A DNA stretch of 64,000 nucleotides from an uncultured Gammaproteobacteria bacterium (GCA_964409875.1 CAYPEN010000002.1:142607-206606); one strand, 5' to 3'. Shown: positions 1,631 to 41,825, counted from the first letter of the stretch. Notes: generated by a model from the sequence alone, not told the origin. A program made the numbers and translations.

Positions 1631-1635
1631 TACAC

Positions 1636-3718: not shown

Positions 3719-3726
3719 ACTTTAAA

Positions 3727-5959: not shown

Positions 5960-6011
5960 ATACGGAAATTATAACGCACCATGACAAACATCGCTTATAA
6001 CAAAGGGGGTT

Positions 6012-7028: not shown

Positions 7029-7070
7029 TTTGATTTAATATAAAACCACTCTTAGTGCTTGTCAATAAGA

Positions 7071-7610: not shown

Positions 7611-7612
7611 AA

Positions 7613-8293: not shown

Positions 8294-8343
8294 AGAAATT
8301 ACGCTTCATAGTACCATATTGTCTGCTACAATAAAACAGCAAA

Positions 8344-8625
8344 ATGGACCAGATTGCAGACATTCTTAAGAAATTTAACCCAACCGAGGACAAGTATATT
8401 TCCCGTGAATTCCAAAGTTATGGAATATACCTTGCAGAGGAATTAAATGACTACAAACATAAAGCTCTCTACATAAAACTTGCCAAAACTACTCACCGCT
8501 CTATTCTTGAAAAAGCACTTTCCTACTGCAAAGATGCAAAGGTCGATAGAAAAGGAGCATTGTTCATGTGGAAATTGAAACAGTTAAAAGAGGCAGGAAA
8601 AGACTCCACAACAAAAAAAGCTTGA
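8344..8625 (+). CDS. Hypothetical protein
   Basis: 93-aa ORF with coding-like composition. No recognisable motif. Confidence 0.3.
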   Translation: MDQIADILKKFNPTEDKYISREFQSYGIYLAEELNDYKHKALYIKLAKTTHRSILEKALSYCKDAKVDRKGALFMWKLKQLKEAGKDSTTKKA

Positions 8626-8626
8626 T

Positions 8627-9190: not shown

Positions 9191-9489
9191 AATCATACCG
9201 TGAAAAAGTATACGCACTTGTCAGAAAAATTCCGCGCGGAAAGGTGACAACTTATGGACAAATCGCACATAAGCTCCACATGTCACCGCGTACTGTTGGA
9301 ACAGCACTCCACCTCAACCCCTACGAAGGAGACGTTCCCTGCCATAGAGTAGTCAACCGTGACGGACGAATTGCTCCGGGATTTGCTTTTGGAGGAATTG
9401 GAGCTCAAAGAAAACTTCTTGAAAATGAAGGGGTAAAGTTTGAAGACGAAACTCATGTAGCCTTATCTAATCATTTTTACCAAATCTAA
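9187..9489 (+). CDS. Methylated-DNA-protein-cysteine methyltransferase family protein (DNA-binding/active-site domain only)
   Basis: Has the 'PCHRVV' active-site cysteine motif and an MGMT C-terminal domain signature. Confidence 0.75.
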   Translation: MKSYREKVYALVRKIPRGKVTTYGQIAHKLHMSPRTVGTALHLNPYEGDVPCHRVVNRDGRIAPGFAFGGIGAQRKLLENEGVKFEDETHVALSNHFYQI

Positions 9490-9504
9490 CCCAATAGTAC
9501 ACCT

Positions 9505-9765
9505 ATGACCGAACTCATCTCTCTTGCCGTGCCAGAAACCCAGGAAGCTATTTTAAGAATGGCCGCATGCCCCACCTCACTAGACCAACTCAATTCGCGG
9601 TTAGCTGAAGAAGGATTTCAGATAGATCATTTGCTCGAGGTAAATATACACTGGCTTCTTCAGAGTGGGGAGTTGACAATGGGAAAAGATTATTTCCTTG
9701 CTTCAGGTCAAAATCCGCACCAACTTTCACTTCCCCTTTTTGACGACCTGCCGGAAAGCGCCTAA
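9505..9765 (+). CDS. Hypothetical protein
   Basis: 86-aa ORF with no motif. Confidence 0.3.
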   Translation: MTELISLAVPETQEAILRMAACPTSLDQLNSRLAEEGFQIDHLLEVNIHWLLQSGELTMGKDYFLASGQNPHQLSLPLFDDLPESA

Positions 9766-9771
9766 CTTCAG

Positions 9772-11523
9772 TTGCTAATAGGTTCATTTTTTTCGTACAA
9801 TCCAAGTATGAAGAAGTTCTTCCTTGTGCCAATCCTCCTTTTGCTCTTTACAAAGCAAACTTTTGCCTCAACCCTCAACCCCCAAACAGAACTTGAAACC
9901 CAAACCATGACAACAGTTAACAACAGTGTTGTCGGTGAAAGAGTAGAAGACTTCGATTCGAATATTCACATCAATAAAGACGGCTCAATTGCGGTTGTTG
10001 AGACTATTCGATACTTCTTCGACACCCCAAGACACGGAATATTCCGAAATATTCCGTTTACTAAATATGATAAGGGGAAACGGTACGATATCGACTTCAA
10101 ATTTGAGCCGGTCACGGACGAAACAGGGAAAAGGTACGAAGTATCACGGACCAAACAAGGAGAGCAATGGGTTTTGAAAATTGGTGATCCCGACGCAACT
10201 GTCTCAGGAAGACACACTTATATCATCTCTTACATTGCAAAAGGCGAATTGGGGTATTTTCCAGACCATGATGAGCTCTACTGGAATGTCACAGGAACTG
10301 CATGGGATGTTCCAATAAAAAAGGTTTATACCACGATAACTCTTCCAGAGAAATTAACCAGTGACAAGATACGGCTTGATTGCTTCACGGGAACATATGG
10401 GTCTACAAAAAAGAATTGCACAGGAACAAGCGACGGGTCTACAACAACAATTGAAACGACGTTATTTCTCAATTCAAACGAGGGTCTAACGATAGTTGAA
10501 GGGTTTCCTAAAGGAATTGTTGCAGTTTTAAAACCAACCGAATATATACCCTTTTTTGAGCGGTGGTACGGAAAAGTAACTCTTATGGCAATTGTCCTTC
10601 TTGCAATAGGCTGGTATATCATCTTGCCAATTTGGCTCATTATTCATTGGTATAAAAACGGACGCGACCCTTTTGTTGGAATTCCACTCACTGCCGGCTA
10701 CGAGGCACCAAAGGCCGGGAAAAGGAGTCTTACTCCTGCAGAAACGGGTACGCTTATCGATGAAACGGTACAAAATCGAGATATTTTTGCCTCAATTGTT
10801 GACCTTGCAAGACGCGGATATCTTCGTATTAATGAACCGGAGAAGAAGGATTTTTTTCTGGAACAACTGTCTCCATTAAAAACAAACGACATACTTCAGC
10901 CTTTCGAGAAGAAGCTTCTTGACGGAATTTTTGATGAAAGAAAACTCATCCGCCTCAAAGATACAAAACTCTACACAACAATCGGGGACGTCAAAAAACT
11001 TCTCTACCAGGACATGGTTGACTCCGAATACTTCAAAACAAACCCAAACACAACCAGAACTAAATATTATGCACTGGGAGGGTTAGCGCTTTTTACCATG
11101 AATTTTGTTCTTGCCTTTGCGGCATTCCTTTTTGGGAAAAATATGCCTAAGAAAACCGTAACCGGAGCACAGCAGGCACAAGTGGCCAGAAGCCTCAAGA
11201 ACTTTTTAACTAGCCAGGAAAGACAACTTGAGTTTCAGGCTGACAAACAGATGTTTTTTGAGAAGCTACTCCCCTTTGCGGTAGCATTTGGTGTCGAGAA
11301 AATCTGGGCAAAGAGGTTTGAGCAATTTAACCTAAAACAACCCGATTGGTATCAAGGGTATAATAATGGAACTTTTAATGCTGCGTTGTTTGCTTCAAGT
11401 CTTTCAAACTCATACAATAGTTTTTCTGTCTCATCAACCCCCCCCTCTTCATCTTCTTCATCGGGTTTTGGAGGAGGATTTTCCGGTGGCGGTGGAGGTG
11501 GAGGAGGCGGCGGCAGCTGGTAA
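9772..11523 (+). CDS. DUF2207-like membrane protein with Gly/Ser-rich C-terminal tail
   Basis: Signal peptide, then a large extracytoplasmic domain ('YIISYIAKGELGYF...LYWNVTG'), then TM helices. The C-terminal poly-Ser/poly-Gly run is read at 11440-11520. Confidence 0.55.
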   Translation: MLIGSFFSYNPSMKKFFLVPILLLLFTKQTFASTLNPQTELETQTMTTVNNSVVGERVEDFDSNIHINKDGSIAVVETIRYFFDTPRHGIFRNIPFTKYDKGKRYDIDFKFEPVTDETGKRYEVSRTKQGEQWVLKIGDPDATVSGRHTYIISYIAKGELGYFPDHDELYWNVTGTAWDVPIKKVYTTITLPEKLTSDKIRLDCFTGTYGSTKKNCTGTSDGSTTTIETTLFLNSNEGLTIVEGFPKGIVAVLKPTEYIPFFERWYGKVTLMAIVLLAIGWYIILPIWLIIHWYKNGRDPFVGIPLTAGYEAPKAGKRSLTPAETGTLIDETVQNRDIFASIVDLARRGYLRINEPEKKDFFLEQLSPLKTNDILQPFEKKLLDGIFDERKLIRLKDTKLYTTIGDVKKLLYQDMVDSEYFKTNPNTTRTKYYALGGLALFTMNFVLAFAAFLFGKNMPKKTVTGAQQAQVARSLKNFLTSQERQLEFQADKQMFFEKLLPFAVAFGVEKIWAKRFEQFNLKQPDWYQGYNNGTFNAALFASSLSNSYNSFSVSSTPPSSSSSSGFGGGFSGGGGGGGGGGSW

Positions 11524-11575: not shown

Positions 11576-13339
11576 TTACTTTTTTTGTAGCTTATATATT
11601 TCTTCCACCTCTTTTAAAGTCGTTGCATCGGTAGGCTTCTTGTCATCACGAAAACGCTCGAGCCTTGGAAAGCGCAATGCATATCCAGGAACGTCTACAT
11701 CAAAGGAAGAGCCACTTTTTGAAGGCTTTAACGTGCGCCCTGCAGTATGTACGGGGGAACGAGTCAATTCATCGGCTTTTATCTCAACCACAATTGACGG
11801 ATCAACCCATACATCAGGCTCGAGCCACTTGTCAACTTCGTAAAGAGCGGACATGTGTTTTGACTTAATCCCCTCTGCTCTCTTATGAAGCTCGCGCCAC
11901 TCATCATCCGTTAGCCCTGTCCCAATTTTAGCAATTGTCACGAATTTGTCTTGAGCCTCATCATATACCCCGATCAGAAACGCCCCCAATCCAAAAGATG
12001 TTCTCTTTCCTCTTCCCGCATAATATCCCATAACAACACAGTCAACCGTGTCATTCAATTTGGATTGGTAACTTCTCTTGAGCTTTATCCATGACCACCC
12101 TCTGGCTCCCGCTTGATATACTCCATCAAGCTTTTTTGCCAAAATCCCTTCAAGTCCTTCTGCTATGCATTTATCAAAGTAATTCTCGATCTCACGGCCG
12201 CTATCAAAAATCTTTTCTTCGGCAGGATAAAGAACAGTCCCCTCTTTTAGGAGGTTTGAAAATTCCTTTCTTCGCTCAACGTACGGCTTGGGAATCATAT
12301 TTTCCTCACTTAAATACAACACATCAAACACCATGTATTTGAGAGGGATTTTCCTGGCCATTTCTTCAATGTCATATTTTCTTTTCCTTTGAGACGTTAG
12401 CTGAAACGGGAGATACTCGTTTGTTTCCGGATTATATGCAATTGCTTCCCCCTCAAATATTGCGCTTTTTGCTTTTACCTGCTCCTTTATTCCCCTCTCA
12501 ACATCTGGATACATAAAAGTCACTTCTTCCAAATTGCGGGTGAACAGTTTCACATTTCCATTCTCATAGTGTGCCTGAAGTCTAAATCCGTCAAACTTCG
12601 GCTCGACTGCACACTTTCCGATTTTGTCAATTATTTCCTGTCCGGACGAAAGCCGTTCTGCGCGGGCCATAAGTATGGGGGTTCCAAATGCGGGTTTTGC
12701 CTTCTCAATTCCTTTTATCCCCTCCTCTTTTATGACTTTCCCGATGTATCCTAAGTCAGGCCTGATGTTATATGCCCTTTCGATTATAGGACGAAGACTT
12801 TTATCTTTTTGCAGCATCCAGGAAAGGCTGTCAAGAACGGTCATATCGGAAAATCCAAGCCTTAATTTTGCAACAGGAATTCTTGCGATATATCGGCATG
12901 AAAGAGGATCTGCCGATTTAAGCAAATTTGATAGTGTTACAATTTTTTTATCAACACTACCGACTCCACTTATGTTTGCAATCTTTTCCAATTCGTCAAA
13001 TGCATCAGAAATTGTCACATTACTGTGCCCTTTGCCAGCCTTCCCTGCCATTGCCTCTGCAATTTCTCCAATATCCCCGACTTTTTTAAACTCCGCTAAA
13101 ACTTCTTTTTCGTCTATCTCATATGCAAAAGCAAGCGCCTTCACGATCATCTTATCGGCCATTCCAAATTCTAGGGGAACATAAAGGGGCGCTACTCTTC
13201 CCTGCAGCAAATACATAACTTTATCAAAAACCTCAGCATGTACTTTTTCAAAAAGTTCTGACAGAATTAGCACCATATCGTTTCTGGATGTGGTAGTTTC
13301 TAATTTCAGCAAATAAATGGAAAGTTCTTTAAATGTCAT
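11576..13339 (-). CDS. ATP-dependent DNA ligase (archaeal/eukaryotic Lig I-like)
   Basis: Motif I 'EPKFDGFRLQ' (KxDG). The adenylation and OB domain motifs include 'ILAKKLDGVYQAG..RGWSWIKLK'. Confidence 0.85.
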   Translation of the reverse strand: MTFKELSIYLLKLETTTSRNDMVLILSELFEKVHAEVFDKVMYLLQGRVAPLYVPLEFGMADKMIVKALAFAYEIDEKEVLAEFKKVGDIGEIAEAMAGKAGKGHSNVTISDAFDELEKIANISGVGSVDKKIVTLSNLLKSADPLSCRYIARIPVAKLRLGFSDMTVLDSLSWMLQKDKSLRPIIERAYNIRPDLGYIGKVIKEEGIKGIEKAKPAFGTPILMARAERLSSGQEIIDKIGKCAVEPKFDGFRLQAHYENGNVKLFTRNLEEVTFMYPDVERGIKEQVKAKSAIFEGEAIAYNPETNEYLPFQLTSQRKRKYDIEEMARKIPLKYMVFDVLYLSEENMIPKPYVERRKEFSNLLKEGTVLYPAEEKIFDSGREIENYFDKCIAEGLEGILAKKLDGVYQAGARGWSWIKLKRSYQSKLNDTVDCVVMGYYAGRGKRTSFGLGAFLIGVYDEAQDKFVTIAKIGTGLTDDEWRELHKRAEGIKSKHMSALYEVDKWLEPDVWVDPSIVVEIKADELTRSPVHTAGRTLKPSKSGSSFDVDVPGYALRFPRLERFRDDKKPTDATTLKEVEEIYKLQKK

Positions 13340-22368: not shown

Positions 22369-24528
22369 TTAGGCGACTTTTCTGCCGTACCGCTCTTTTG
22401 AAAGCCGGATAATGTCATCCCTATTCTCATTTTTAAGGTTGGGAAGTGGTAGCGTTTTTGCGGCAAATGGCATAGAGGTCATATTGTCAATTGATAGCTT
22501 CATGACAATTTCGTGCTTCCCTAAAGATACAAGGTCGTTTTGCGAATAAATTTGGGCAAATTCATTCGTGAGTAAAGCAGCATCTCCGGCACCTGTCACA
22601 AACGATATAAGCGTTCCAGCATTTCCAAATATAGCCTTTTGAATAGTAACGTCGAGCTGGTCAATGTACTGGTTAGCAAGGGTTATTGCAAGCCTGTATT
22701 TTCTTGCCTCGGACAGAATTTTGATGAAAGACGAGGTTGCGAAGTTCTGGAACTCGTCTACATACAGGAAAAAGTCCTGCCGCTCTTCCTCTTTTTGGAA
22801 AGCACGGTTCATAGCGGCTAATTGAATTTGAGTAATAATCATAGCCCCCAAAAGCGCCGCGTTGTCCTCACCTAATTTCCCTTGCGACAAGTTCAGGAGC
22901 AGTATTTTTTTCCCATTCATTATTTCTTCCAAATCAATTGTCGATTTTGGATTGCCGATAATGTTTCGTATCATTTTGGAGGACACAAACTGTCCGACTT
23001 TGTTTTGTATGGGAGAAATTGCCTCCACCCTCAACTTGTCTGTCATCTTATCAAACTCCTGTTCCCAGAACGCGCGGATAACAGGGTCTTGGATATTTGG
23101 AACGACTTTGTCACGATACGCTTTGTCTGAAAGAATTCTTAATGCATCAATAAGTGTTGAATTGGGTATTTCAAGAAGGGTAAAAATGGTGTTTCTTAGG
23201 ATATACTCAAGCCTTGGACCCCAGGAATCGGCATAAATTTTTGAGAAGATTGAGACGATACCTGATGCGATAAGATCTTTGTGCTGTTTGTTTTTAATCT
23301 CCAAAACATTTAGTGAGAAAGTCCGTTCCGTATCGAAAGGCTCAAGATACACAACGTCATTAAGTCTTCTTTTGGGAATATAGTCCAAAACCGTTTCACA
23401 TAAATCACCATGGGGGTCAATAATTCCGATTCCCCGGCCTTTTCTTATATCATCAATTGCCATATTGGCAATGAGGGTTGATTTTCCCGCACCGGTTTTT
23501 CCCATAATGTACACATGCTTTCGTCTATCAATATCCTTTATGCCAAAAATCGTATTTTGGTTTTTAAATTCCGTTGCCGCAAAGAAATTGACGTTTTGCT
23601 TTTCCTCTTCAGTCATGTTGTTGGCAGCAGGAATATTTTCGGGAGGTTCACCTGCTAATGTTTTACCCCATGAAATGTTTTTTATACCGGACAAAAGCTT
23701 TCCCGCAGGATGCCACATGGTCGCAAGTTCCTGTGCATTTAAAATTTGATGCCTCCGCTCAAGAAGCGTTGTAGAGCGGGTATGTATCCTTTTTAAAAGC
23801 CGCGCCTTGTTGAGAATCGGACGCTTGAATTTCAGTTGGTTTCCTTCCCCACTAGAAAAACTTCCAAATGTACCTGCTACATTTTGAAGATATGGCAAGG
23901 GAGAACCACTGTTTGCTGAGGCAATAAGCCTGATAAGTGTTTTTCCTCCTTGAAATTCCGTCTTTTCTGAAACCGCACTTGCTGATACTACCCCGTCTTT
24001 TGAAGTTGTTCCGTCAGAATTTACTTTTGGCTGGGTTGCGGCAATAGCATGCGATTGCCAAGGAAAGGATGCGGGAGTAACTAAGATCTGGATACCAATA
24101 TCAACCCCTTCCTGCTGTTTTGCAAGAAACCCGATAAGGGACGCAATAGGGTCTACGTTGCTGAATTCTTTATATGTCTTTAATGGATAATGATAGGATG
24201 AATTGAGCTTCAATTCACCTACCTCTTTGTGTTTTGCTGACAAGATTAATTCCATCGGGTCTGTTGTAGGGGAAATTGCACAGCGAGGATATGAGGAAAC
24301 CATAAGACTTGTAATGAAAGTTTCCATAGCTTTTGGGACAACAATATAAAAGTAAATTTTCTGTTTCAAAAGATAAATCTCAAACGACACACAAGGCGGT
24401 GTGTGATAAAGCCTTTTAAATAAACCCACATAACTTGGGAGAAGAGCCGAGAAAATTTGAGTTGCTGACTCGATACTCGTTTCATCGTCCTTTGGCGTTC
24501 TGACGTGTAAATAGATTGGATCTTTCAT
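22369..24528 (-). CDS. P-loop ATPase of the HerA/FtsK/VirB4-TraG superfamily with ~350-aa N-terminal unknown domain
   Basis: 'HVYIMGKTGAGKST' matches the HxxIxGxTGxGKS pattern. Walker B 'LYVDEFQNF' is followed by 'EARKYRLAITLANQ'. Confidence 0.6.
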   Translation of the reverse strand: MKDPIYLHVRTPKDDETSIESATQIFSALLPSYVGLFKRLYHTPPCVSFEIYLLKQKIYFYIVVPKAMETFITSLMVSSYPRCAISPTTDPMELILSAKHKEVGELKLNSSYHYPLKTYKEFSNVDPIASLIGFLAKQQEGVDIGIQILVTPASFPWQSHAIAATQPKVNSDGTTSKDGVVSASAVSEKTEFQGGKTLIRLIASANSGSPLPYLQNVAGTFGSFSSGEGNQLKFKRPILNKARLLKRIHTRSTTLLERRHQILNAQELATMWHPAGKLLSGIKNISWGKTLAGEPPENIPAANNMTEEEKQNVNFFAATEFKNQNTIFGIKDIDRRKHVYIMGKTGAGKSTLIANMAIDDIRKGRGIGIIDPHGDLCETVLDYIPKRRLNDVVYLEPFDTERTFSLNVLEIKNKQHKDLIASGIVSIFSKIYADSWGPRLEYILRNTIFTLLEIPNSTLIDALRILSDKAYRDKVVPNIQDPVIRAFWEQEFDKMTDKLRVEAISPIQNKVGQFVSSKMIRNIIGNPKSTIDLEEIMNGKKILLLNLSQGKLGEDNAALLGAMIITQIQLAAMNRAFQKEEERQDFFLYVDEFQNFATSSFIKILSEARKYRLAITLANQYIDQLDVTIQKAIFGNAGTLISFVTGAGDAALLTNEFAQIYSQNDLVSLGKHEIVMKLSIDNMTSMPFAAKTLPLPNLKNENRDDIIRLSKERYGRKVA

Positions 24529-30243: not shown

Positions 30244-30298
30244 TAACAGAGTGTGGGTAAGATTTGCCTATTCATGAAATGTCATACTACTAAATTTA

Positions 30299-30499
30299 GT
30301 AGCTGGAGTGGGGTTCGAACCCACGACTTTTGCGTTACATTAACAATTTGCAGATTTTGTAGCTGGAGTGGGGTTCGAACCCACGACCTCAGCGTTATGA
30401 ATGCTGTGCTCGAACCAGCCGAGCTCTCCAGCCGTCTACTTACTGCAAATTGTTAATGAGCTCCGAATGCTGTGCTCGAACCAGCCGAGCTCTCCAGCC
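30299..30499 (-). repeat. Nested partial duplications of the tRNA-Met gene with a 16-nt inverted repeat
   Basis: 30465-30499 repeats the 5' 35 nt of the tRNA (30399-30433) exactly. 30301-30327 repeats its 3' 27 nt (30361-30387) exactly. 30338-30353 'cattaacaatttgcag' is the reverse complement of 30443-30458. Confidence 0.8.
30360..30433 (-). tRNA. tRNA-Met (anticodon CAT; could also be a lysidine-modified tRNA-Ile2)
   Basis: Hand-folded cloverleaf. Acceptor GGCTGGA/TCCAGCT, D-stem GCTC/GAGC, anticodon loop TTCATAA, T-arm GTGGG-TTCGAAC-CCCAC. No encoded CCA. There is an A31-C39 mismatch in the anticodon stem. Confidence 0.7.
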
Positions 30500-32175: not shown

Positions 32176-33042
32176 TTAAAGCTCAAGAAGTGAAGTACTT
32201 TCTCCGTTTTTGTGTTCTTTTACGTATTGCAGATAGCGTTCGGTTGATGAAAGTCGTTTGTGTCCCAGTACTTTGGAGAGAAAAACTAAAGATACTCCCT
32301 GCTTAAGGTGATGTGCTACAAATGTATGCCTCAAATCATTTATCTTTACATTTTCAATTCCTGCTTTTTTAAAATATCTTTCGACAGCATCTCGAATGTT
32401 TCTTACAAGAAATGGCCTACCGGTCTTTGTTACAAACACATGGGTGTCCTCCGTATTTGCACGGGTTTCCATATATCGCTTTAACGCTTCCTTTGCACGT
32501 CTATTCAGAGGGACCTCGCGTGATTCATGCCCTTCATATGGCCTTATATGAAGCGAATTTTCAGAAACATCTTCTACGCGAAGGTTGGCAAGTTCTCCGA
32601 TGCGAATACCAGTTTGTAGAAGAACTTCAATAATCGCATAGATTCTGGAATCGACAGATGCTGCATCTCTTAACGCACGGTATTCAAGAGGCGACAGCAT
32701 TCGAGGAGGATTAAGCTCATATTTTGGATGCTCAACAAGCAACGACGGGTCGTCCGTTACATATTCATTTACTTTTAAATAACGATAGAATGTCCGAGTT
32801 GAGTTAAGTTTTCGAGATAAAGATTTGGGGGTATAGCCTTCGTCTTTTAACTTTGTTAAGAACGCTTGAATATCCGTTCCGTTCACTTCATGGATGTTGT
32901 TTTTCTGAAGCGCTTCAAGAAATTCAATTAATTGCTCGACATCCTTGCCATATGCTAATATTGTCGCGGACGCTCTATTTTTAGATTTTAAAAAGTCCTG
33001 GAACTTTCCATGTGCGTCCCTAAGACGTAACTCATTTGCCAT
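32176..33042 (-). CDS. Tyrosine recombinase (XerC/XerD/phage-integrase family)
   Basis: N-terminal SAM-like core-binding domain. Catalytic box 'LRHTFVAHHLKQGVSL...LGHKRLSSTERYLQY' (R..H..R..Y). Confidence 0.85.
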   Translation of the reverse strand: MANELRLRDAHGKFQDFLKSKNRASATILAYGKDVEQLIEFLEALQKNNIHEVNGTDIQAFLTKLKDEGYTPKSLSRKLNSTRTFYRYLKVNEYVTDDPSLLVEHPKYELNPPRMLSPLEYRALRDAASVDSRIYAIIEVLLQTGIRIGELANLRVEDVSENSLHIRPYEGHESREVPLNRRAKEALKRYMETRANTEDTHVFVTKTGRPFLVRNIRDAVERYFKKAGIENVKINDLRHTFVAHHLKQGVSLVFLSKVLGHKRLSSTERYLQYVKEHKNGESTSLLEL

Positions 33043-33458: not shown

Positions 33459-33600
33459 AATTTGGTGCGGAGTAAGCAGGGCTTGCTCACGCAACACCCA
33501 TTTCATTCGTGTTGCGGGGCCTAGAAGAAATACGAACATACTTTCTAACCCGTAACGATTCAGTCATTATACCAAATTTAGCTTAATTATTCTTCTTTAA

Positions 33601-34788
33601 TTGCATTTAAAAAAGTCCTATACTGAGAACATGCCAACTGTAGCAATACTCAAGCAGAATATTGAGGACATTTTAAAACAGCAAGGCTATACTTTAAGCA
33701 CGAATGGTAGTTTTATTCTTCCTTCAAGCGATAGAGAATCTTGGAGACAGGCGCATTATATAGCAAGAACAGAACGCCTGTTAGCAAAAGAGAATTTTAT
33801 TCTAAAAGGTAGCAGAATAGCTCAAAAGTATTTTCTTGATGGGAAAGATTTAAATATTGAAAAAATTGAGCCTAAATTGATTGAAGTTGAAGCAGAAACT
33901 GAATGGGAAGATTTATTTAAGTGGTGGAACTTAACCTGGTGGAGCCTACCTTATGAGAAAGCTTACGGCAGACAAATGAGATTTGTTGTATGGGATAAAT
34001 ACCACAATGCGCCTATTGGTCTCATCGGCTTACAAAGCCCAATACTTAGTTGGAGTGTTAGGGATAAATTTCTAAATATTCCATATGAAACAAGAGATTA
34101 TTGGGTCAATCAATCTTTAAGTGCACAAAGAATTGGAGCACTACCCCCTTATAACGACATTCTCGGAGGCAAGCTTGTTTCACTCCTTATGACATCAGAC
34201 ACAGTCAGAAAAGCCTTTAATAAAAAGTATAAAAACAAGGCCACATTGTTAAAAAATAGAGAACTACCATCAAGGTTGCTGTTTATTACCACAACAGGAG
34301 CATATGGGAAAAGTAGTGTTTATCAACGCTTAAAATTTAACCAAGAGGTAATTGCAAAGTTTATTGGATTTACTCAAGGAAGTGGAACTTTTCACATTCC
34401 AAACGCATTGTTTGAAGACCTGGTAAAGTATATGCAAAAGAGAGGCTATCCTGTAGGAAGAGGCTATGGCAATGGACCGTCTCGCAAGCTTAGAATTATT
34501 GACCAAGCACTTCAGCTTTTAGGATTTGCAAACGGAGCAACTCATGGCATTAAGAGAGCAGTTTATTTATTCCCCATGGTAAGAAATTTAGATAACGTAA
34601 TACAACAAGACAAAAGGCCTCTATGGGCAAAAAGAAGCGAAGAAGATTTAACTGAATTCTGGAAAAATAGATGGGCGTTTCCACGAGCTGAAAGAAATCC
34701 TGCATATAAAACGTATGTTAGCAAGGACTTTTTAAGTGAAATTATGTATAATCTAGAGCAATATAGGGCGTTAAGTCCTACATTGTAA
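33601..34788 (+). CDS. Island protein of unknown function (395 aa), first gene of the HerA/NurA operon
   Basis: Long uninterrupted ORF with a Trp-rich segment 'WEDLFKWWNLTWWSLPYEKAYGRQMRFVVWDK'. No motif I can assign. A 3-nt gap separates it from the next gene. Confidence 0.5.
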   Translation: MHLKKSYTENMPTVAILKQNIEDILKQQGYTLSTNGSFILPSSDRESWRQAHYIARTERLLAKENFILKGSRIAQKYFLDGKDLNIEKIEPKLIEVEAETEWEDLFKWWNLTWWSLPYEKAYGRQMRFVVWDKYHNAPIGLIGLQSPILSWSVRDKFLNIPYETRDYWVNQSLSAQRIGALPPYNDILGGKLVSLLMTSDTVRKAFNKKYKNKATLLKNRELPSRLLFITTTGAYGKSSVYQRLKFNQEVIAKFIGFTQGSGTFHIPNALFEDLVKYMQKRGYPVGRGYGNGPSRKLRIIDQALQLLGFANGATHGIKRAVYLFPMVRNLDNVIQQDKRPLWAKRSEEDLTEFWKNRWAFPRAERNPAYKTYVSKDFLSEIMYNLEQYRALSPTL

Positions 34789-34791
34789 AGG

Positions 34792-35931
34792 ATGAACGAT
34801 TCCTCAAATAATGATACATTCGGGGATTTACCTCAAGCATTAGTAGAAGAACTTCTTGGTAAAAGTCAGGAAGTAGGCAATGCATTGTATTCTTCATTTA
34901 GTAATATTCAAAATCAGAAGAAAAAATTCAGAGAAGACTTGGAAAAGGGAAATATTCTAAAAAGAGAGGCTGACTATAGCGTATCTGTACCGCCTACGAC
35001 TTGTGGAATTGATGGCGCCTATGCAAAGGAGGAGCTTTTATCAGTAGATTTGCTGGCAGCAGCCGCCGTCGCTCTTGAAGGAATAACCCCACCGTCTGAA
35101 ACAAGATTTTGGGAGGGCCCTCATCACCAGGTAATCATACAGGAAGAAAAACACAATCCCGACACTAACACAATCTTACGGGCAATAATGATAGGAATGG
35201 AACAACAGCTTGCGGAAAAAGCACCTCACGATGTTGTATTCATAGACGGTTCTTTAACTACGCCGTTAATTTTTTTCAATCAAGCAATTAATAAAGCTGA
35301 AGAATCAGATGATAATAGAGAACTTTCTATCTCTAAAAAACTTTTTGAGGTTTTACCTGAATCCTTAGCTTCATATCGTAAAGTTTTAGGCAATTCTCGA
35401 ACTGATAAGCTCTGGGTAGGGATGCCAAAATATACCACAAACAGAGAGATTGGGCGAAGTATGAAATGGGACCAGTCCTATGATGATAGAGCCTTGTTAA
35501 CTCTACTGTTAGCACCCGGTGAATTAACGACTCCACTCCCTTTCCAAAAACCATCTCAACCATGGCATTTAACTTACAAGCCGTGCGAGAAAGATATACA
35601 AAGCATTAAGGACTCTCTGGGCGGGTTGCGAGTTATTTATTATAGACCTCATGTGTGGACTCCTGCTCTTAGAATAGAGTTAAACTCTCACACTGCAGCC
35701 AATGAGTATCAGCTTGGCATGGTTCTGCAAGCTGTTAAATTTCAATGTGCTACTGCAGGAATAATTGAACCTTATCCTTTGTATATAGCAGATAGAATGG
35801 TTAAGTCCTTAGGCACTGGTCTACCAGCATTTAGACAGGTGGTTACTCGACAGATGGCAGAAGATTATGATGGCGATATTGGTGAAGTGTTTTTTACTAT
35901 GCATGGATATAGGACAGAACGTTCAAAATAG
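34792..35931 (+). CDS. NurA-like nuclease (RNase H-fold) candidate
   Basis: Two 'DG' catalytic-type motifs, 'CGIDGAYA' and 'VVFIDGSLTTP', with an acidic 'IIQEEKH' stretch between them, spaced as in NurA. It is operonic with a HerA ATPase. Confidence 0.5.
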   Translation: MNDSSNNDTFGDLPQALVEELLGKSQEVGNALYSSFSNIQNQKKKFREDLEKGNILKREADYSVSVPPTTCGIDGAYAKEELLSVDLLAAAAVALEGITPPSETRFWEGPHHQVIIQEEKHNPDTNTILRAIMIGMEQQLAEKAPHDVVFIDGSLTTPLIFFNQAINKAEESDDNRELSISKKLFEVLPESLASYRKVLGNSRTDKLWVGMPKYTTNREIGRSMKWDQSYDDRALLTLLLAPGELTTPLPFQKPSQPWHLTYKPCEKDIQSIKDSLGGLRVIYYRPHVWTPALRIELNSHTAANEYQLGMVLQAVKFQCATAGIIEPYPLYIADRMVKSLGTGLPAFRQVVTRQMAEDYDGDIGEVFFTMHGYRTERSK

Positions 35932-35960
35932 ATGTATAATACAAAAAATAAAGATGAATT

Positions 35961-37736
35961 ATGAAAGATGATAAAAAAAATATAGAAGAAGTCCTTAAGG
36001 ATGCTGAGCGAATTGGAGTTATAGGCTCACCCTCCTCTACAAGTAAGCTTACGCTGGATATTTTAGGAAGTGCTGTAAACAAAAAACTTGTAGGAGAACT
36101 TGGTTTATTTTCATACACACAAGAAGGTAGCAAGAATTATGCAATGGGTCAAATTACTGAAGTTGAGCTTCATAACATTTGGCACCAAGACCCAACAATA
36201 AGAAGCCTTATAAGACAAAAAGGGAGCATTAACCCTGTAAGCGAACGCCAGGATACCCATATTGGACAGATGACAATTAGCGCAGTTTTTCAATCGGCGG
36301 GAGATAGTATTTTTGAACCAAGCATTTTAGGTACAATTCCCGCAACAGGAACTCCAATAAATATCGTGTCTGACGACATACTAAACACCATTCTTTCTGC
36401 ATATAAAGACGAAATCTTTTATTTAGGGAATGTGTATGGCTCTAAACCAAAGCTACCTATGTGGTTTAAGCATTTTGATTCTGGAAAAGGTGGCGCAGGA
36501 GAAGCCTATCATCTTGGTATATTTGGGAAAACTGGCTCTGGTAAGTCTGTTTTGGCAAAGATGACAATAATGGGATACGCAAGACATAAGCAAATGGGAA
36601 TATTCATTCTAGACCCTCAGGGTGAATTTTCAAAAGGACTTAAAGATGGTGTGACCTCAGACACAATGAAAACAATTCTATGCAAAGAGACATTAGAAAA
36701 AATGGAAAGAGAATATGTAGTATATGACCTTAACAACATTGCTCTCAGTAGGTGGTCGCTTTTTGCTCAATTTTTAATAGAATTTAACTTTTTCTTTGAG
36801 CTCGGAATTAAATCCTCAGATTATCAAAAAATAGTTGCTGAAGACATAGAAGATTTTTGTAGAAGCAATTCAGCTTTAAAGCTATCTCAGCTCGATAATA
36901 ATGCATTAGCAAAAGTATTGGAACATTTAGATGCAAATATTCATCGTGTATACGCTGGAAAGCAATCAGATGGTGCAAATAGAGTGAAAGAATACATTGC
37001 AGAATGCCTTGAAGCTATAAAGAATAATACAGATAATAGGTTAGTTAATATTTGGACAAAAGTAGGTAAGCTTTTTGATAATAGTGGAGGCAAGAAAAAT
37101 CCAAAAGACATTGTAAACGAGGCAATAAAAGGAGGTACTAGCACGAGAAAACTTGTCTCGATTGACCTTTCTCAAAAACCATCTGACATTTCACCTTATG
37201 TATGGGACGAAAAAATAAAACCACTTATCATTGATAACTTTCTGAGCGACTTAGTACAAGCAGCAGAATACGCGTACAGAGATGATAAAAGCTTAAATAC
37301 TCTTGTTGTAATTGATGAAGCCCATAGACTTGCTCCAAGAGGAAGTTTAGAAAATGAGAAAAAAGAAAAAATACGCTCTACCCTTGTAGATGCGGTAAGA
37401 ACAACAAGAAAATATGGATTGGGCTGGTTGTTTATCAGCCAAACACTATCTAGTTTAGATAAGGACATAATTGAACAATTAAGAATCAACTTTTTTGGAT
37501 TTGGTTTGTCTATGGGTACAGAATTCCAGTCTTTAAGAGAGCTTGCTGGTGGCGACCCTGCTGCACTAAAATTGTATCAATCTTTTAGAGACCCACATAG
37601 CGCATTCGATAACAATCTACGCGAGTATGCGTTTATGTCATTGGGACCAGTTTCACCCCTCTCTTTTGCAGGCACACCCCTATTCCTATCCGTATTTACA
37701 TCCCCTGAGGTTTTCTTAAAGGAGAATAATCTATAA
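35961..37736 (+). CDS. HerA-family hexameric ATPase/helicase
   Basis: N-terminal HAS-barrel-like region. 'HLGIFGKTGSGKSVL' is the HerA HxxIxGxTGSGKS motif. Walker B 'VVIDEAHRLAP'. 'GLGWLFISQTLSSLD' is sensor-like. Confidence 0.8.
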   Translation: MKDDKKNIEEVLKDAERIGVIGSPSSTSKLTLDILGSAVNKKLVGELGLFSYTQEGSKNYAMGQITEVELHNIWHQDPTIRSLIRQKGSINPVSERQDTHIGQMTISAVFQSAGDSIFEPSILGTIPATGTPINIVSDDILNTILSAYKDEIFYLGNVYGSKPKLPMWFKHFDSGKGGAGEAYHLGIFGKTGSGKSVLAKMTIMGYARHKQMGIFILDPQGEFSKGLKDGVTSDTMKTILCKETLEKMEREYVVYDLNNIALSRWSLFAQFLIEFNFFFELGIKSSDYQKIVAEDIEDFCRSNSALKLSQLDNNALAKVLEHLDANIHRVYAGKQSDGANRVKEYIAECLEAIKNNTDNRLVNIWTKVGKLFDNSGGKKNPKDIVNEAIKGGTSTRKLVSIDLSQKPSDISPYVWDEKIKPLIIDNFLSDLVQAAEYAYRDDKSLNTLVVIDEAHRLAPRGSLENEKKEKIRSTLVDAVRTTRKYGLGWLFISQTLSSLDKDIIEQLRINFFGFGLSMGTEFQSLRELAGGDPAALKLYQSFRDPHSAFDNNLREYAFMSLGPVSPLSFAGTPLFLSVFTSPEVFLKENNL

Positions 37737-37955
37737 TTATTCAATTAAATCACCAATGTTCACGCCTAGTGCAACAGAAATTTTATATATAGTTGACAAT
37801 TTAGGGTCTCGGTGACCCATCTCAATCTCATTAACTGTAGTTAAATCCATTCCAATATCTCCTGCAAGGTCTTCTTGCGACAGTTTATTTTTATTTCTTA
37901 ATTCACGAACCTTATTGCCAAACTCCCTTTTTACAGCCTCATCTGAGATTGTCAT
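37737..37955 (-). CDS. XRE-family helix-turn-helix transcriptional regulator
   Basis: 'LRNKNKLSQEDLAGDIGMDLTTVNEIEMGHRDPKLSTIYKISVALGVNIGDL' is a typical Cro/C1 HTH. Confidence 0.8.
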   Translation of the reverse strand: MTISDEAVKREFGNKVRELRNKNKLSQEDLAGDIGMDLTTVNEIEMGHRDPKLSTIYKISVALGVNIGDLIE

Positions 37956-37965
37956 ATATTGTGTT

Positions 37966-38009
37966 TATGCCAAATTTCCTATAAAATGTCTTTGGCATAC
38001 ATGCCAAAT
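37966..38009. promoter_or_regulatory. Operator-like palindrome TATGCCAAA-N16-TTTGGCATA plus a third half-site ATGCCAAAT
   Basis: Perfect 9-bp inverted repeat at 37966-37974 / 37991-37999 and a third copy at 38001-38009. They sit in the divergent intergenic region between the XRE HTH gene and the zinc-ribbon gene. Confidence 0.5.
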
Positions 38010-38014
38010 AATGA

Positions 38015-38392
38015 ATGATGTTTTGCAATAATTGCGGTAAGGAACTAAGTGCAGAAAGCAGATTTTGTTCGAACTGTGGAACATCTATCCCTATAACAGA
38101 TAACTACAAGAAAAAATCCTCGAATATTACATTTGAAGCAATAAAACTAACTTCTAAAATCACCCTTGCGCCTGTCACCATCCCCTTTAGTATTCTGAAG
38201 TGGAGTCTCGGAATCAGAACTTTAAAGTGTCCTCGCTGCAGCAATAAAAAAATAAATAAAATGAAACCAGGCTGGGCAGAAAGTGCGATACCTGGTTTTG
38301 CACTTTTAGCTTTAGGGCCTTTAGGTCTTTTAGCAGGGCGTCCAAAAACCTTGTTCGTTTGCAAGCAATGCGGTTTCTCATGGGAAAGATAA
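38015..38392 (+). CDS. Double zinc-ribbon membrane protein
   Basis: 'CNNCGKEL...CSNCG' and 'CPRCS...CKQCG' Cys4 pairs flank a hydrophobic segment. Confidence 0.5.
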   Translation: MMFCNNCGKELSAESRFCSNCGTSIPITDNYKKKSSNITFEAIKLTSKITLAPVTIPFSILKWSLGIRTLKCPRCSNKKINKMKPGWAESAIPGFALLALGPLGLLAGRPKTLFVCKQCGFSWER

Positions 38393-38627
38393 GTAAGCTT
38401 GAGTAAGGGTTTTCATTTGTAATTTTTCCTATTTTTTTAGACTGAACTTTTGAAAAACCATTATGTGGCCAAAAACTCATTACGTCTATGCTAAAGCACT
38501 TGCATAATAGATTCTAATTGGAGGGGAATATTTAACCGTCGAATGTATATTTTCTATATAAAATACCATTCATAAACGCGCTTTTTTTAAGTTTTTCCTT
38601 AAAAACTGATATAGTTTATATATAGTA

Positions 38628-38656
38628 TTGACACAAATGTCTAATTGACTTTAAAT
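38628..38656 (+). promoter_or_regulatory. Sigma70-like promoter TTGACA-N17-TTAAAT
   Basis: -35 at 38628-38633 and -10 at 38651-38656, in an ORF-free AT-rich region. Confidence 0.35.
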
Positions 38657-38662
38657 CGATAA

Positions 38663-38766
38663 GATTTAAAATATACTTGTAAGCACGTCTCGGCGCCTAT
38701 CCATTGGAGCTGAGGACTTATCCAAAAGTTCAGAGACTGTGAGCGAAAGCTCGCGGTCTTTTTTTA
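38663..38766 (+). ncRNA. Candidate ~100-nt small RNA or 5' leader ending in an intrinsic terminator
   Basis: No ORF on either strand. A promoter lies upstream. The 3' end carries a GAGAC-...GAGC-GAAA-GCTC...-GTCT stem-loop followed by a T7 run. Confidence 0.3.
38733..38766 (+). terminator. Rho-independent terminator-like hairpin (GNRA tetraloop) + U-tract
   Basis: 'gagactgtgagcgaaagctcgcggtcttttttt'. Confidence 0.5.
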
Positions 38767-38773
38767 TGGCTTT

Positions 38774-39052
38774 ATGAATGATGAATTAGACATATTCGAA
38801 ACAAAGGATAAACAATTTACTCCATATCTGTTTATCCAACCTGACGTTAAGTTTTTAGGAACAAGAATCCAAGATTCCACTGTATTCTTTCGCTTCTCTC
38901 CTTCTCTCAGATGTAAAACCCTCTTAAATCTGTTTATCAGTAAGCAAGCACCACCTGTTCAAGGAAAGAGTTTGTTGGATGCGCTTGAAAGCTACAGAGA
39001 CTTAATTTTTGAGATGAAGATGAAGATGAAGGAAAAACATTATGAACCATGA
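38774..39052 (+). CDS. Hypothetical small protein (island cassette)
   Basis: 92 aa. Its stop overlaps the next ORF's start. Confidence 0.35.
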   Translation: MNDELDIFETKDKQFTPYLFIQPDVKFLGTRIQDSTVFFRFSPSLRCKTLLNLFISKQAPPVQGKSLLDALESYRDLIFEMKMKMKEKHYEP

Positions 39053-39503
39053 TTATTTAACAAAACAGGAACAAATTGAAATAAACCAAAGTCTTGCAGA
39101 ATCTTACAATTACAAAGATTCATATACAAAGGGTGATGACTTTGTCTTAGAAGGTGGAAATGATACTCGTAGATTAAAAGTAAATAGAGAGTTAACCCAA
39201 AGAAAAATAGAAGCTATTAATGCATTAAAAGAGTGTCGTGCCAGTACACCACCAGAAATAGTGTCAGATTTACTTTCACAGCTTTTTGAAAACTCTGATA
39301 CTGAACCAGGCTGGTGGCTTTACGTTGCCCAGCATTGGCCACCTAATCCCATAAATCGAGTAATAAAACTCATGCTCAAACTTCATCAAGGGAAATGGAT
39401 AACTTTCAGAGACCCAGCGAAATACTTCACATCCGAAATAAAACATAGGAAGCAAAGAATGATTTTTCAGAAAAAAAGAAGGGAGAAGCATGAAAAAGCT
39501 TAA
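39042..39503 (+). CDS. Hypothetical protein (island cassette)
   Basis: 153 aa with a basic C-terminus. Overlapping start/stop couples it to its neighbours. Confidence 0.4.
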   Translation: MNHDYLTKQEQIEINQSLAESYNYKDSYTKGDDFVLEGGNDTRRLKVNRELTQRKIEAINALKECRASTPPEIVSDLLSQLFENSDTEPGWWLYVAQHWPPNPINRVIKLMLKLHQGKWITFRDPAKYFTSEIKHRKQRMIFQKKRREKHEKA

Positions 39504-39753
39504 AAACTACACCCTTAAAGTCTACGAAAATGATGAAGTTGGTATGGTAGTGCGTACTCACTCAAAACGCTTAATTCTCACACGTTTACGCTCAATAAAC
39601 TGGACAAACAAGGCAATTAAAACCTACTTCAGAGTGTCTTATGGCAAGAAGAATGATACTCATGGAAAACTCAGCACTTTCTACAACGATGGTGATTTTT
39701 ATAACAAAGAAGACTTGGATTGGGCTTTTGAAGCTTTTGACTATGAAGATTGA
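39490..39753 (+). CDS. Hypothetical small protein (island cassette)
   Basis: 87 aa. Overlaps the upstream gene by 14 nt. Confidence 0.35.
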   Translation: MKKLKNYTLKVYENDEVGMVVRTHSKRLILTRLRSINWTNKAIKTYFRVSYGKKNDTHGKLSTFYNDGDFYNKEDLDWAFEAFDYED

Positions 39754-39928
39754 CGGATTACACCATCTAGATAATAAAGCTATCGATGAGTTTACTCAGC
39801 TCTATTACAAGGAGTATGGAATTAAACTCAATAAACAAGAGGCTACGGAGCTTGGAAACAGATTTATACGTTTTATGAGAGCTATATATGCGGATGCCCT
39901 ACCAAAGTCAAAAAGGGTTGACAAGTAG
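39743..39928 (+). CDS. Hypothetical small protein (island cassette)
   Basis: The start is trimmed to the internal Met 'MKIDGLHHLD' (ATGAAGATTGA overlaps the upstream stop). The longer ORF 39641.. would overlap the upstream gene by 113 nt in another frame. Confidence 0.3.
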   Translation: MKIDGLHHLDNKAIDEFTQLYYKEYGIKLNKQEATELGNRFIRFMRAIYADALPKSKRVDK

Positions 39929-39964: not shown

Positions 39965-41698
39965 ATGAACGAACAAAAAAATATAAAATACTTTGGTTAT
40001 ATACGTAAAAGCTCTGAGGACAATCGCGAACGACAAGCGGCATCCCTTCCTGAGCAGAGGTATGCCTTAGATTTATTAAAAACTAAGCTTAATCTGAAAA
40101 TTGTAGACGTACTTGATGAATCTAGAACAGCTCATGAACCAGGAAGACCCACTTTCAACTCCATGTTAGAGAAGATATCAAACGGTGAAGCCAACGCGAT
40201 TCTCACATGGCACCCTAATAGGTTATCTCGAAACCCTGTTGATACAGGTCACTTGCTTTATCTCATGGACGCAGGAAAACTAGTTGAAATCCGCACTCCT
40301 TCACGTGCCTATCATAATACGCCTGAGGATAAGTTTATGTTGGGACTTGAATTTGGTATTAGCAAGAAAGACTCGGACGACAAATCCATTGTTGTAGAAC
40401 GTGGGCTCGAAGGGAAAGCAAGGAAAGGATGGAGACCTGGAGTTGCTCCTCAAGGCTATCTAAATGATAAGGGAACCGAAAGTGGAGAACGTAAAATATA
40501 CTCTGACAACGACCGCCTACCACATATCAAAAACATATTCTCGCTGTTTTACAATGGAACACCTGTAATTGAAATTCATCGAATTGCCCACGAAGATTGG
40601 CATTACCTTACGCGTCAACATAAAAGAATGGGAGGTAAACCACTTTCAATAAGCATGATATATTCAATACTGACAAACCCATTTTACTGTGGGAAATTCG
40701 AATACCCTCTTGGAAGCGGAAAATGGTATGAAGGAGCTCATGAGAAGGTGGTAAATGAAGAAGTATTCAGTGAAATACAAGTTAAATTAGGACGTAGAAG
40801 CCCTTACAAGGTGAAGCATAACGGTTTTGCCTACAACGGGAGCGCAATTCGTTGTGGAGATTGCGGTTCAAGCATTGTTGCTGAACAAAAAAAGCAGTGC
40901 ATTTGTTCTAACTGTAAAACTAAATTTTCTATATCACATAAAAATCCAGACACCTGTATTAAATGTGGTTCTTTAATCGAGAGCATGTCAAACCCTAAGT
41001 TGCTTCATTACATCTATTATCGATGTGGTAGAAAAAAGAATCCAAAATGCCTACAAAAAGCAGTACAACTAACAGAACTTGAGAGGCAAATTGACAAAAA
41101 ACTAACTCAAATTGAAATTTCTCCAGTGTTTGTAGACTGGGCCATAAAACAAATTCAAAAAATGAATGAGAGTAATAAAGATTTTGAAGAAGCAACATTT
41201 AAAGGATTAAAGGCAGCGCACGATAAGTGCAGAATAAAACTTAATAATTTATTACAACTAAAGATATCACCAGAAAACGTAAATGGTAGTCTACTATCAG
41301 ACTCAGAATACAAAACCCAAAAAGAAACTTTGGAATCTGAGCTTAAGATTATTGAAAAACAACTTGAAGACACTGACAATCAAATGCTTCAATCAAATAG
41401 CGACACAGAAAAGGCTTTTAATTTTGTTTCCAGAGCTAGAGAACGATTTTCTCTGCCAGATATCAAGATTAAGCGTGATATATTCTTGGGATTAGGGTTG
41501 CACCTAACACTTAAGGACAAAATAATCGATTTTGACAGTCCAAAGTATATTAAATCTCTTGAAAAAATGAAGAAAGAAGCTCCAATTATTGCAGAGAGGG
41601 TCGCACCTGAAAAAGAGATTGAATTGAAAGCAAAAATGGAGGAAAAGTTTGCGACAATTCCAAGTGTGTTGCGGAGTAAGGAGTTGAACCTTATCTAG
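39965..41698 (+). CDS. Large serine recombinase (resolvase N-domain + recombinase domain + zinc ribbon + coiled coil)
   Basis: Catalytic N-terminus 'YFGYIRKSSEDNRERQAASLPEQ', a recombinase domain, a Cys-rich zinc-ribbon ('CGDCGSS...CSNCKTKF...CIKCGS') and a long coiled-coil C-terminus. Confidence 0.9.
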   Translation: MNEQKNIKYFGYIRKSSEDNRERQAASLPEQRYALDLLKTKLNLKIVDVLDESRTAHEPGRPTFNSMLEKISNGEANAILTWHPNRLSRNPVDTGHLLYLMDAGKLVEIRTPSRAYHNTPEDKFMLGLEFGISKKDSDDKSIVVERGLEGKARKGWRPGVAPQGYLNDKGTESGERKIYSDNDRLPHIKNIFSLFYNGTPVIEIHRIAHEDWHYLTRQHKRMGGKPLSISMIYSILTNPFYCGKFEYPLGSGKWYEGAHEKVVNEEVFSEIQVKLGRRSPYKVKHNGFAYNGSAIRCGDCGSSIVAEQKKQCICSNCKTKFSISHKNPDTCIKCGSLIESMSNPKLLHYIYYRCGRKKNPKCLQKAVQLTELERQIDKKLTQIEISPVFVDWAIKQIQKMNESNKDFEEATFKGLKAAHDKCRIKLNNLLQLKISPENVNGSLLSDSEYKTQKETLESELKIIEKQLEDTDNQMLQSNSDTEKAFNFVSRARERFSLPDIKIKRDIFLGLGLHLTLKDKIIDFDSPKYIKSLEKMKKEAPIIAERVAPEKEIELKAKMEEKFATIPSVLRSKELNLI

Positions 41699-41825
41699 GA
41701 GATTATGAGCCTCCTGTGCAGCCGTACACTACCCCGCGATACAGACAAATAGTATACTTCAAATTAGCTTCAAATGCAACCACAAGACTTGTTTTTCACA
41801 CGATTTTCTAGTAGAATACAATCTT

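Follow-up and report, generated by a model that had tools for sequence, protein, structure and literature searches.

The 64,000-nucleotide (nt) stretch of DNA analysed here, referred to as the window, comes from an uncultured Gammaproteobacteria bacterium (GCA_964409875.1 CAYPEN010000002.1:142607-206606) and carries three tightly packed plus-strand genes, which we call druA, nurA and herA, or together the trio. Their open reading frames (ORFs) run from 33601 or 33631 to 34788, from 34792 to 35931 and from 35961 to 37736, and reading them bears out the coordinates and the 3-nt and 29-nt spacings given in the initial annotation of the window. All three genes are real and intact. An operon is plausible since a promoter and terminator scan of 30-42.5 kb finds no terminator-like site between them; an Rfam scan of the same interval finds only tRNAs. 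As set out below, the identity, linkage and genomic context of these genes point to an undescribed, widespread defence module that pairs DruA with NurA and HerA instead of the usual Druantia helicase.

The first gene, druA (33631-34788, +), encodes a DruA/DUF4338 protein of 385 amino acids (aa). It had initially been read as a 395-aa ORF, and a TTG start at 33601 that would give this length does exist, but the 385-aa product from the ATG at 33631 is likelier because the close DruA homologues are all 380-390 aa long and begin at the residue equivalent to this ATG. The protein had also been said to match nothing that could be named, whereas it is a full-length DruA, both by Pfam PF14236 (226 bits, E 7e-67, cutoff 27) and by PADLOC DruA1 (315.6 bits over the full length). 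The structure prediction and fold search that had been proposed for it yield, in place of an unnamed protein, a core with the GNAT (acyl-CoA N-acyltransferase) alpha/beta fold, and the DNA-adenine-modifying enzyme Mom is among the top fold matches. The Aravind laboratory also classes DUF4338 as GNAT (PMC10853773). About 20 residues, including G-R, D122, R-D, P-Y and G-G-K, are invariant from the window protein via canonical type I DruA to a phage homologue, as is the core motif PPYN..LGGK, and the G-G-K is located where the GNAT cofactor loop falls. Judged from the sequences, this pattern of invariant residues is typical of an enzyme. The DruA family is small, with 1,817 representatives at 50% clustering of 1.84 billion proteins. 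Protein Data Bank sequence searches with DruA and NurA profiles gave nothing usable, and we found no DruA function proposed or demonstrated in the searchable literature; the published mechanistic work on Druantia that we found concerns the DruH-DruE type.

The second gene, nurA (34792-35931, +), encodes a 379-aa NurA-family nuclease with conserved D74, E137, D152, H259, D334 and K338. The predicted structure has the RNase H/PIWI-like NurA fold, in agreement with the earlier description of the protein as NurA-like. The two acidic 'DG' motifs singled out in that description are D74-G75 and D152-G153; over a set of 40 homologues D74, E137 and D152 reach at least 90% conservation, and they follow the expected order, spaced much as in Pfu NurA, whose catalytic residues are Asp51, Glu105, Asp126 and His411 (PMC3300031). 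Candidates for the fourth ligand are D334, H259 or H371, in a poorly modelled region. The name given by NCBI to the NurA homologues is 'DNA double-strand break repair nuclease NurA', and PADLOC v2 has no model for NurA of the window type.

The third gene, herA (35961-37736, +), encodes a 591-aa ATPase of the HerA/FtsK superfamily whose central domain matches Pfam DUF87 (60.8 bits). The HerA motifs that had been noted, the Walker A sequence HLGIFGKTGSGKS and the Walker B sequence VIDEAHRL, are present and are invariant in 20-38 homologues. In the window protein they correspond to G186-K195 (GIFGKTGSGKS) and D452-E453 and are accompanied by the conserved arginines R456, R480 and R483; GKTGSGKS, DEAH and R480/R483 are invariant among the homologues. 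This assignment is further supported by the observation that a profile built from 20 homologues finds HerA-type ATPases of solved structure, among them TdpA (8wet_A, E 8e-9) and Sso HerA (4d2i, E 2e-7), as well as defence HerAs. The HAS-barrel-like N-terminus claimed for the protein could not be confirmed, as residues 1-180 have no Pfam HAS-barrel match even at E<=10; this region is conserved among the homologues, and the alignment with the HerA-type ATPase 9c1m begins at residue 94. In characterized complexes it is the N-terminal HAS-barrel of HerA that docks NurA (PMC9960219). PADLOC HerA models match the protein with at best 55.8 bits, and weak PHROG matches are to terminase and FtsK. No trio protein exceeds any curated NCBIfam cutoff: HerA reaches 33 bits against the cutoff of 970 of the repair equivalog helicase_HerA, and 19-22 bits against the cutoffs of 800-850 of the anti-phage HerA equivalogs.

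Whether the triad is conserved in other genomes had been named as a check, and the answer is a strict three-way linkage, with all three genes at full length in 83 loci in total. A DruA-anchored scan, restricted to one genome per species, gave 42 loci with DruA relatives (51-64% identity, and 39% for an archaeal one), and a NurA-anchored scan of metagenomes retained 80 loci of at least 391 matches. NurA and then HerA follow in all 36 DruA-anchored loci with at least 3.3 kb of downstream sequence, the five loci without them being cut off by contig ends. Conversely, DruA is found in 17 of the 17 NurA-anchored loci with at least 4.6 kb upstream, and HerA in 17 of the 17 with enough downstream DNA. 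The DruA-anchored loci come from Patescibacteria, Omnitrophota, Nitrospirales, Gamma- and Alphaproteobacteria, Brocadiales, Zixibacteria, Ignavibacteriales, Phycisphaerae, Thermodesulfobacteriota, Eubacteriaceae, Archaeoglobaceae and Pacearchaeota, and trio hosts altogether belong to upwards of a dozen phyla of bacteria and to some archaea; versions from cultured strains include those of Thermodesulfovibrio sp. 3462-1 and Rosettibacter firmus. When all ORFs of the first 54 loci are clustered, the DruA, NurA and HerA families alone prove conserved, with no fourth. Besides these, the recurrent clusters comprise antisense shadow ORFs over the trio, a serine-recombinase family (eight loci, including the window), a DNA-methyltransferase family (seven loci) and a few families restricted to closely related Nitrospirales loci. 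Gene order departs from the rule in two loci, one with convergent NurA-HerA (L021) and one archaeal locus with the order NurA-HerA-DruA (L041). Split genes also occur: DruA and HerA are each split into two ORFs in Ca. Zeuxoniibacter abyssi, and HerA is split beside an intact DruA in one further locus (L023). In this small sample no locus has a broken DruA with an intact NurA-HerA. These patterns show the trio to be a self-contained cassette that has spread horizontally.

Within the cassette, the tree of DruA does not agree with that of NurA-HerA. Pairwise identities of NurA and HerA are closely correlated (Spearman 0.85), while those of DruA correlate less well with NurA and HerA (0.54 and 0.46). 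The window itself illustrates this: its DruA is nearest to what we call the 'B' lineage (51-63% identity), whereas its NurA and HerA fall in the 'A' lineage (~50-55%) and are only 22-26% and 29-35% identical, respectively, to their B counterparts. These identities indicate that the DruA and NurA-HerA lineages have been shuffled relative to each other, as would be expected if the parts communicate via a DNA mark and not through a co-evolved interface.

The company that the trio keeps is of a defence type. DNA methyltransferases and parts of restriction-modification systems are the Pfam families met most often among the 136 closest neighbours of the trio, and PADLOC agrees. Other genes have moreover been inserted into the operon, in the druA-nurA interval in 11 of 80 loci and in the nurA-herA interval in nine, so that roughly a fifth of the loci house recognised defence genes within the operon. 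These inserts include a Lamassu LmuB-like SMC ATPase (171 bits) with a 177-aa partner (eight loci), Tiamat TmtA (313 bits; three loci), a GmrSD type IV restriction enzyme, a GajB-like UvrD-PD(D/E)XK protein, a DndB-GIY-YIG protein, a kinase/ORC-CDC6 protein with a CARF-like partner, and a type II restriction-modification pair, the ThaI restriction enzyme together with its methyltransferase. The proposal in the initial annotation of an undescribed defence module made of HerA, NurA and a third component on a mobile island thus finds support in the linkage, the restriction-modification neighbours, the nested defence genes and the identity of DruA. We found no description of a DruA-NurA-HerA trio in the full-text literature, subscription journals not being covered.

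Several individual loci deserve mention. A family of ~370-aa proteins that has no Pfam or PADLOC match (for example L074:2572-3690, L049:9554-10669, and members in seven other loci) lies in the nurA-herA interval in seven loci and in the druA-nurA interval in two, is preceded by a YunG-domain protein in four, and is a candidate accessory or nested defence gene. In L080, the C-terminal half of a DruE1 helicase (50-2911; PADLOC 359 bits) stands directly upstream of NurA (2939-4063) and HerA; as the contig ends within DruE1, a locus combining Druantia DruE with NurA-HerA may exist. An Acidobacteriota locus (L051) has a DruH-DruE-like pair on its minus strand (1-6141), consisting of a 743-aa protein and a helicase of more than 1,300 aa with DEAD, YjiV_N, Helicase_C and MZB domains, back-to-back with HTH_17-DruA-NurA-HerA (trio at 6861-10922).

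Relatives of DruA also occur in viruses, unaccompanied by the other two genes. A search of 2.9 million viral contigs gave three partial DruA matches, none with NurA-HerA, and on this ground we reject a phage-borne origin of the module. One of these, on a 4613-nt IMG/VR contig (L136), is a DruA homologue of 49% identity that is cut by the contig start; the genes behind it are unknown ORFs and a Zot-like assembly ATPase of the inovirus type, so that either a filamentous phage carries DruA or one has integrated beside it. The plasmid search returned only canonical Druantia or short DUF4338 proteins and no trio. Solo DruA-like genes are found in lytic pelagiphages and cyanophages. In the lytic, T4-like Pelagibacter phage Mosig, a solo 432-aa DUF4338 protein (L055:4551-5849) is encoded between peptide deformylase and MazG genes, near several 2OG-Fe(II) oxygenase genes. 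DruA-fold proteins are further found among giant-virus models in BFVD, namely A0A3G4ZXG3 (Faunusvirus), A0A5K0UAJ3 (Yasminevirus) and A0A3G4ZRA1 (Dasosvirus), with Foldseek E values of 6e-12 to 4e-8 at ~17-20% identity; two of these matches are within proteins of more than 1,100 aa.

In the window, the trio is probably carried by an 8.2-kb integrative element at a tRNA-Met gene, delimited by an 11-nt direct repeat. The left copy of the repeat, TGCGGAGTAAG (33466-33476, putative attL), was located by a repeat search and direct reading and starts just past the stop of the DivIC gene; read along the minus (tRNA) strand it runs on into CCA, as expected for a displaced tRNA 3' end. The right copy (41670-41680, putative attR) lies within the 3' end of tRNA-Met (CAT anticodon; 41668-41738, -; ARAGORN, and Rfam tRNA at 42.4 bits), whose 5' end, CGCGGGG..., resembles that of an initiator tRNA. 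An 11-mer repeat taken by itself is within chance for 12.5 kb, and what lends it credibility is that it coincides with the 3' end of a tRNA and with the border of the island. Between the repeats, the trio is followed by a convergent, abutting Xre-type HTH regulator (37737-37955, -; Pfam HTH_3, 55.8 bits), an island gene that is not kept with the trio in other loci. Next come cargo genes at 38015-39928 (+), comprising a zinc-ribbon protein (38015-38392) and four small ORFs that have no family match in Pfam and PHROGs scans, and finally a 577-aa large serine recombinase, or integrase (39965-41698, +; Pfam Resolvase, Recombinase and Zn_ribbon_recom; PHROG integrase, 171 bits), whose ORF end overlaps the tRNA by 31 nt.

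The island had been described as recombinase-bounded, which holds for the serine recombinase at its right end but not for the tyrosine recombinase at 32176-33042. The latter is rejected as a border because the DivIC gene intervenes and the direct repeat starts after DivIC, and it is probably a housekeeping Xer-type enzyme. A PHROGs scan finds no phage structural or replication genes in the island, and we therefore do not read it as a prophage or satellite. Its G+C content is slightly lower than that of the flanks (0.35-0.41 versus ~0.40). An independent assembly of the same genome (L001, a Logan contig corresponding to window ~33488-39694) breaks 12 nt past the left repeat and again inside the island at ~39694; the left break is consistent with an island that some strains carry and others lack. 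Elsewhere in the window, half-tRNA fragments flank another tRNA-Met (30359-30433) on both sides (30294-30499; a 44-nt copy at 91% and a 35-nt copy at 100% identity) and look like scars of another tRNA-Met integration. The window also encodes a second DUF87/TrwB-type ATPase, which is 719 aa long, type IV coupling-protein-like and unrelated to the trio (22369-24528, -), and, in this bacterial sequence, an ATP-dependent DNA ligase with N, M and C domains (11576-13339, -).

The explanation towards which we lean is that of a Druantia-related, three-gene anti-phage or anti-plasmid module in which NurA-HerA replaces DruB-E and DruA serves self/non-self discrimination. Its parts can be held with different firmness: that the trio is a defence module is quite probable, that NurA-HerA is its DNA-degrading effector is fairly likely, and that DruA acts by modifying DNA is a tentative proposal with somewhat less than an even chance. 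Driven by ATP, HerA would act as a hexameric ring that is threaded onto DNA at free ends, which injected phage DNA or linear replication intermediates would offer and a circular chromosome would not, and would feed the DNA to a NurA dimer for degradation. The GNAT-fold DruA would tell self from non-self, most plausibly through a covalent mark on host DNA that holds NurA-HerA off. The overall layout would thus resemble restriction-modification, with parallels in TdpC and TdpAB and in type I Druantia. For the latter, a preprint by Ojima et al. (bioRxiv 10.1101/2024.04.14.589459; cited in 10.64898/2026.05.12.722862) reports new 'm6A' calls in E. coli DNA in a system that has no methylase domain, no one gene being assigned to them. 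The GNAT fold with Mom among its top matches, the invariant core motif, these calls, the TdpABC parallel, the lineage shuffling and the solo DruA-like genes of lytic phages, which recall the orphan modification enzymes that phages carry, are suggestive points that favour self-marking by DruA. A more specific version is that DruA represents a new class of GNAT-fold DNA base-modifying enzyme that, like Mom, would place a non-methyl mark on host DNA and form with NurA-HerA a minimal 'acyl-type' restriction-modification system, which we regard as possible but rather doubtful. Mom of phage Mu makes N6-methylcarbamoyl-adenine. If DruA were such an enzyme, it would explain the type I Druantia 'm6A' signal, and cyanophages, pelagiphages and giant viruses would use their solo DruA-like genes to mark their own DNA as a counter-defence.

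Several observations weigh against this interpretation. The case for a defence role comes entirely from genomic context. The DruA segment P-P-Y-N-x-x-L-G-G-K stands at the position expected for GNAT pyrophosphate binding but is no exact match to Q/R-x-x-G-x-G/A. DruA is also strongly conserved (51-64% identity across phyla) and has no evident variable target-recognition region, which makes it unlike sequence-specific modification enzymes, and no orphan DruA of the window clade was seen among the loci examined, whereas orphan methyltransferases are common. The same domain, DUF4338, is found as a variable N-terminal domain of DndF as well (PMC10853773), which fits an effector or sensor role equally. 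The NurA model is moderately confident (predicted local distance difference test, pLDDT, 72), and two of its segments with conserved residues are poorly modelled. Finally, the modification observation of Ojima et al. is a preprint and does not point to DruA in particular.

Some of these points would suit a defence module in which DruA is a sensor or switch attached to NurA-HerA, one that responds to a DNA structure, a protein of the phage or a metabolite, for example an acyl-CoA, and then licenses the nuclease. It might do so by acylating a phage protein or one of its partners, NurA or HerA. The strict 1:1:1 linkage and the tight or overlapping gene junctions suggest one complex, and no orphan DruA of the window clade is seen. 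DUF4338 is moreover listed among the interchangeable N-terminal sensor or effector domains of DndF (PMC10853773), and DruH, the non-helicase partner of Druantia III, has been described as the likely sensor of infection. We nevertheless consider such a sensor unlikely: phage-component sensors are usually fast-evolving, yet DruA is the most conserved of the trio across clade-B loci, the shuffling of DruA against NurA-HerA speaks against a co-evolved interface, and the solo DruA-like genes of lytic phages are hard to explain for a host sensor. It is less probable again that the trio acts by abortive infection, with NurA-HerA sensing foreign DNA ends and DruA acting as a GNAT toxin that arrests growth by acylating a molecule essential to the host, such as aminoacyl-tRNA, since NurA retains all its presumed catalytic acidic residues, which a pure sensor would not need. 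The GNAT toxins of toxin-antitoxin systems, being small, are also unlike the 385-aa DruA with its extra N- and C-terminal domains. Type I Druantia is in addition reported to alter DNA modification (10.1101/2024.04.14.589459).

Two further explanations dispense with immunity. The trio could carry out housekeeping double-strand-break repair, with end resection by NurA-HerA and DruA as an accessory, and indeed its NurA fold and HerA family are those of the archaeal and Deinococcus resection complexes and the NCBI name of the NurA homologues says as much. We think this very improbable, because the distribution is patchy and horizontal across distant phyla, the trio lies on an integrative island in the window, NurA-HerA is obligately paired with a Druantia protein, the operon has defence genes nested within it, HerA falls far below the repair equivalog cutoff, and no linkage to Mre11-Rad50 appears in the contexts examined. 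Least probable of all is that the element uses the trio to process its own DNA in replication, transfer or packaging, an alternative that the initial annotation had raised. The trio is the main cargo of the serine-integrase element in the window, and HerA relatives include conjugation and packaging ATPases, as the weak terminase and FtsK matches recall. This alternative fits poorly with the finding that a homologous recombinase is near the trio in only seven of ~50 other loci, most loci lying among unrelated housekeeping genes, and Pfam and PHROGs scans find no replication, relaxase, capsid, terminase or virion genes alongside the trio. The scarcity of viral matches and the restriction of the plasmid matches to canonical Druantia or short DUF4338 proteins argue in the same direction.

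A defence module of this kind would matter in several ways. The trio pairs DruA with two well-understood enzymes and thus offers a much simpler setting for studying DruA function than type I, whose operon comprises five genes in ~12 kb. Should DruA write a mark on DNA, this would be a new chemistry for restriction-modification-like immunity and would explain how type I Druantia modifies DNA with no methylase. The module is common in Patescibacteria and other uncultivated lineages, where known defence systems are seldom detected, so that current tools may under-count the defence repertoires there; PADLOC lacks a model for NurA of the window type. The repeated nesting of defence systems within the operon further provides a 'guilt by embedding' handle on new defence genes, such as the ~370-aa family.

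Comparison with known systems places the trio closest to type I Druantia by its signature protein. The window DruA is 35-37% identical over 95% of its length to canonical DruA, for example that of Nitrosococcus pNWAT01, and shares its invariant core residues; in both systems an ATP-dependent DNA motor is encoded after DruA, and the window locus has DruA (PF14236) as its first gene, as is required of type I. In the canonical pNWAT01 operon, DruA is followed by 955-aa and 360-aa proteins and a 1,849-aa DEAD-box helicase. All Druantia subtypes are defined by DruE, a ~2,000-aa YprA/MrfA-family SF2 helicase with MZB/DUF1998 (10.64898/2026.05.12.722862), and type I has DruB, DruC and DruD between DruA and DruE (PMC7251935). 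DruE is absent from the 64-kb window, where the longest ORF is 894 aa and none of the nine other large ORFs (at least 450 aa; MurD, HerA and the serine recombinase were scanned separately) has a helicase or MZB domain. The PADLOC check proposed at the outset gave a divided result, in that the DruA1 and HerA models match but DruB, DruC and DruD have no match, genes 2 and 3 being NurA and HerA; PADLOC v2 contains nothing that corresponds to the trio and would not call the window locus. The motor-nuclease role instead falls to NurA and HerA, which directly follow DruA in more than 40 other loci. For want of DruE the module fails the definition of Druantia, and it is a Druantia-related variant, neither canonical Druantia nor wholly new.

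In its enzymatic parts, the trio is comparable to other HerA-based systems. It shares with the archaeal and Deinococcus NurA-HerA pairs the NurA fold, the putative D-E-D metal-binding residues, the HerA P-loop ATPase and the adjacent, co-oriented genes, and, as its intact catalytic motifs suggest, the end-threading mechanics, in which DNA ends pass via the HerA hexamer into the NurA dimer (PMC3300031, PMC9960219), are probably the same. Unlike those pairs, it is always DruA-linked, mobile and found in defence contexts, has no Mre11-Rad50 linkage and stays below the equivalog cutoffs. Like Sir2-HerA and DUF4297-HerA, it combines a HerA-family hexameric ATPase with an effector enzyme in a small defence operon, from which it differs in having NurA as effector and an obligate third gene. 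The parallel with TdpABC goes further, since TdpA matches the window HerA profile and TdpB matches the NurA fold, although sequence similarity of both to the window proteins is remote and none of the trio proteins has a Dnd-, Ssp- or Tdp-type family match in Pfam, PADLOC or NCBIfam. TdpABC has a single modification gene, tdpC, for phosphorothioate modification. The third gene of the trio encodes GNAT-fold DruA in place of the phosphorothioation enzyme TdpC, so that any modification would be chemically different from that of TdpABC. By these analogies, the trio would work most like TdpABC while sharing its signature protein with type I Druantia.

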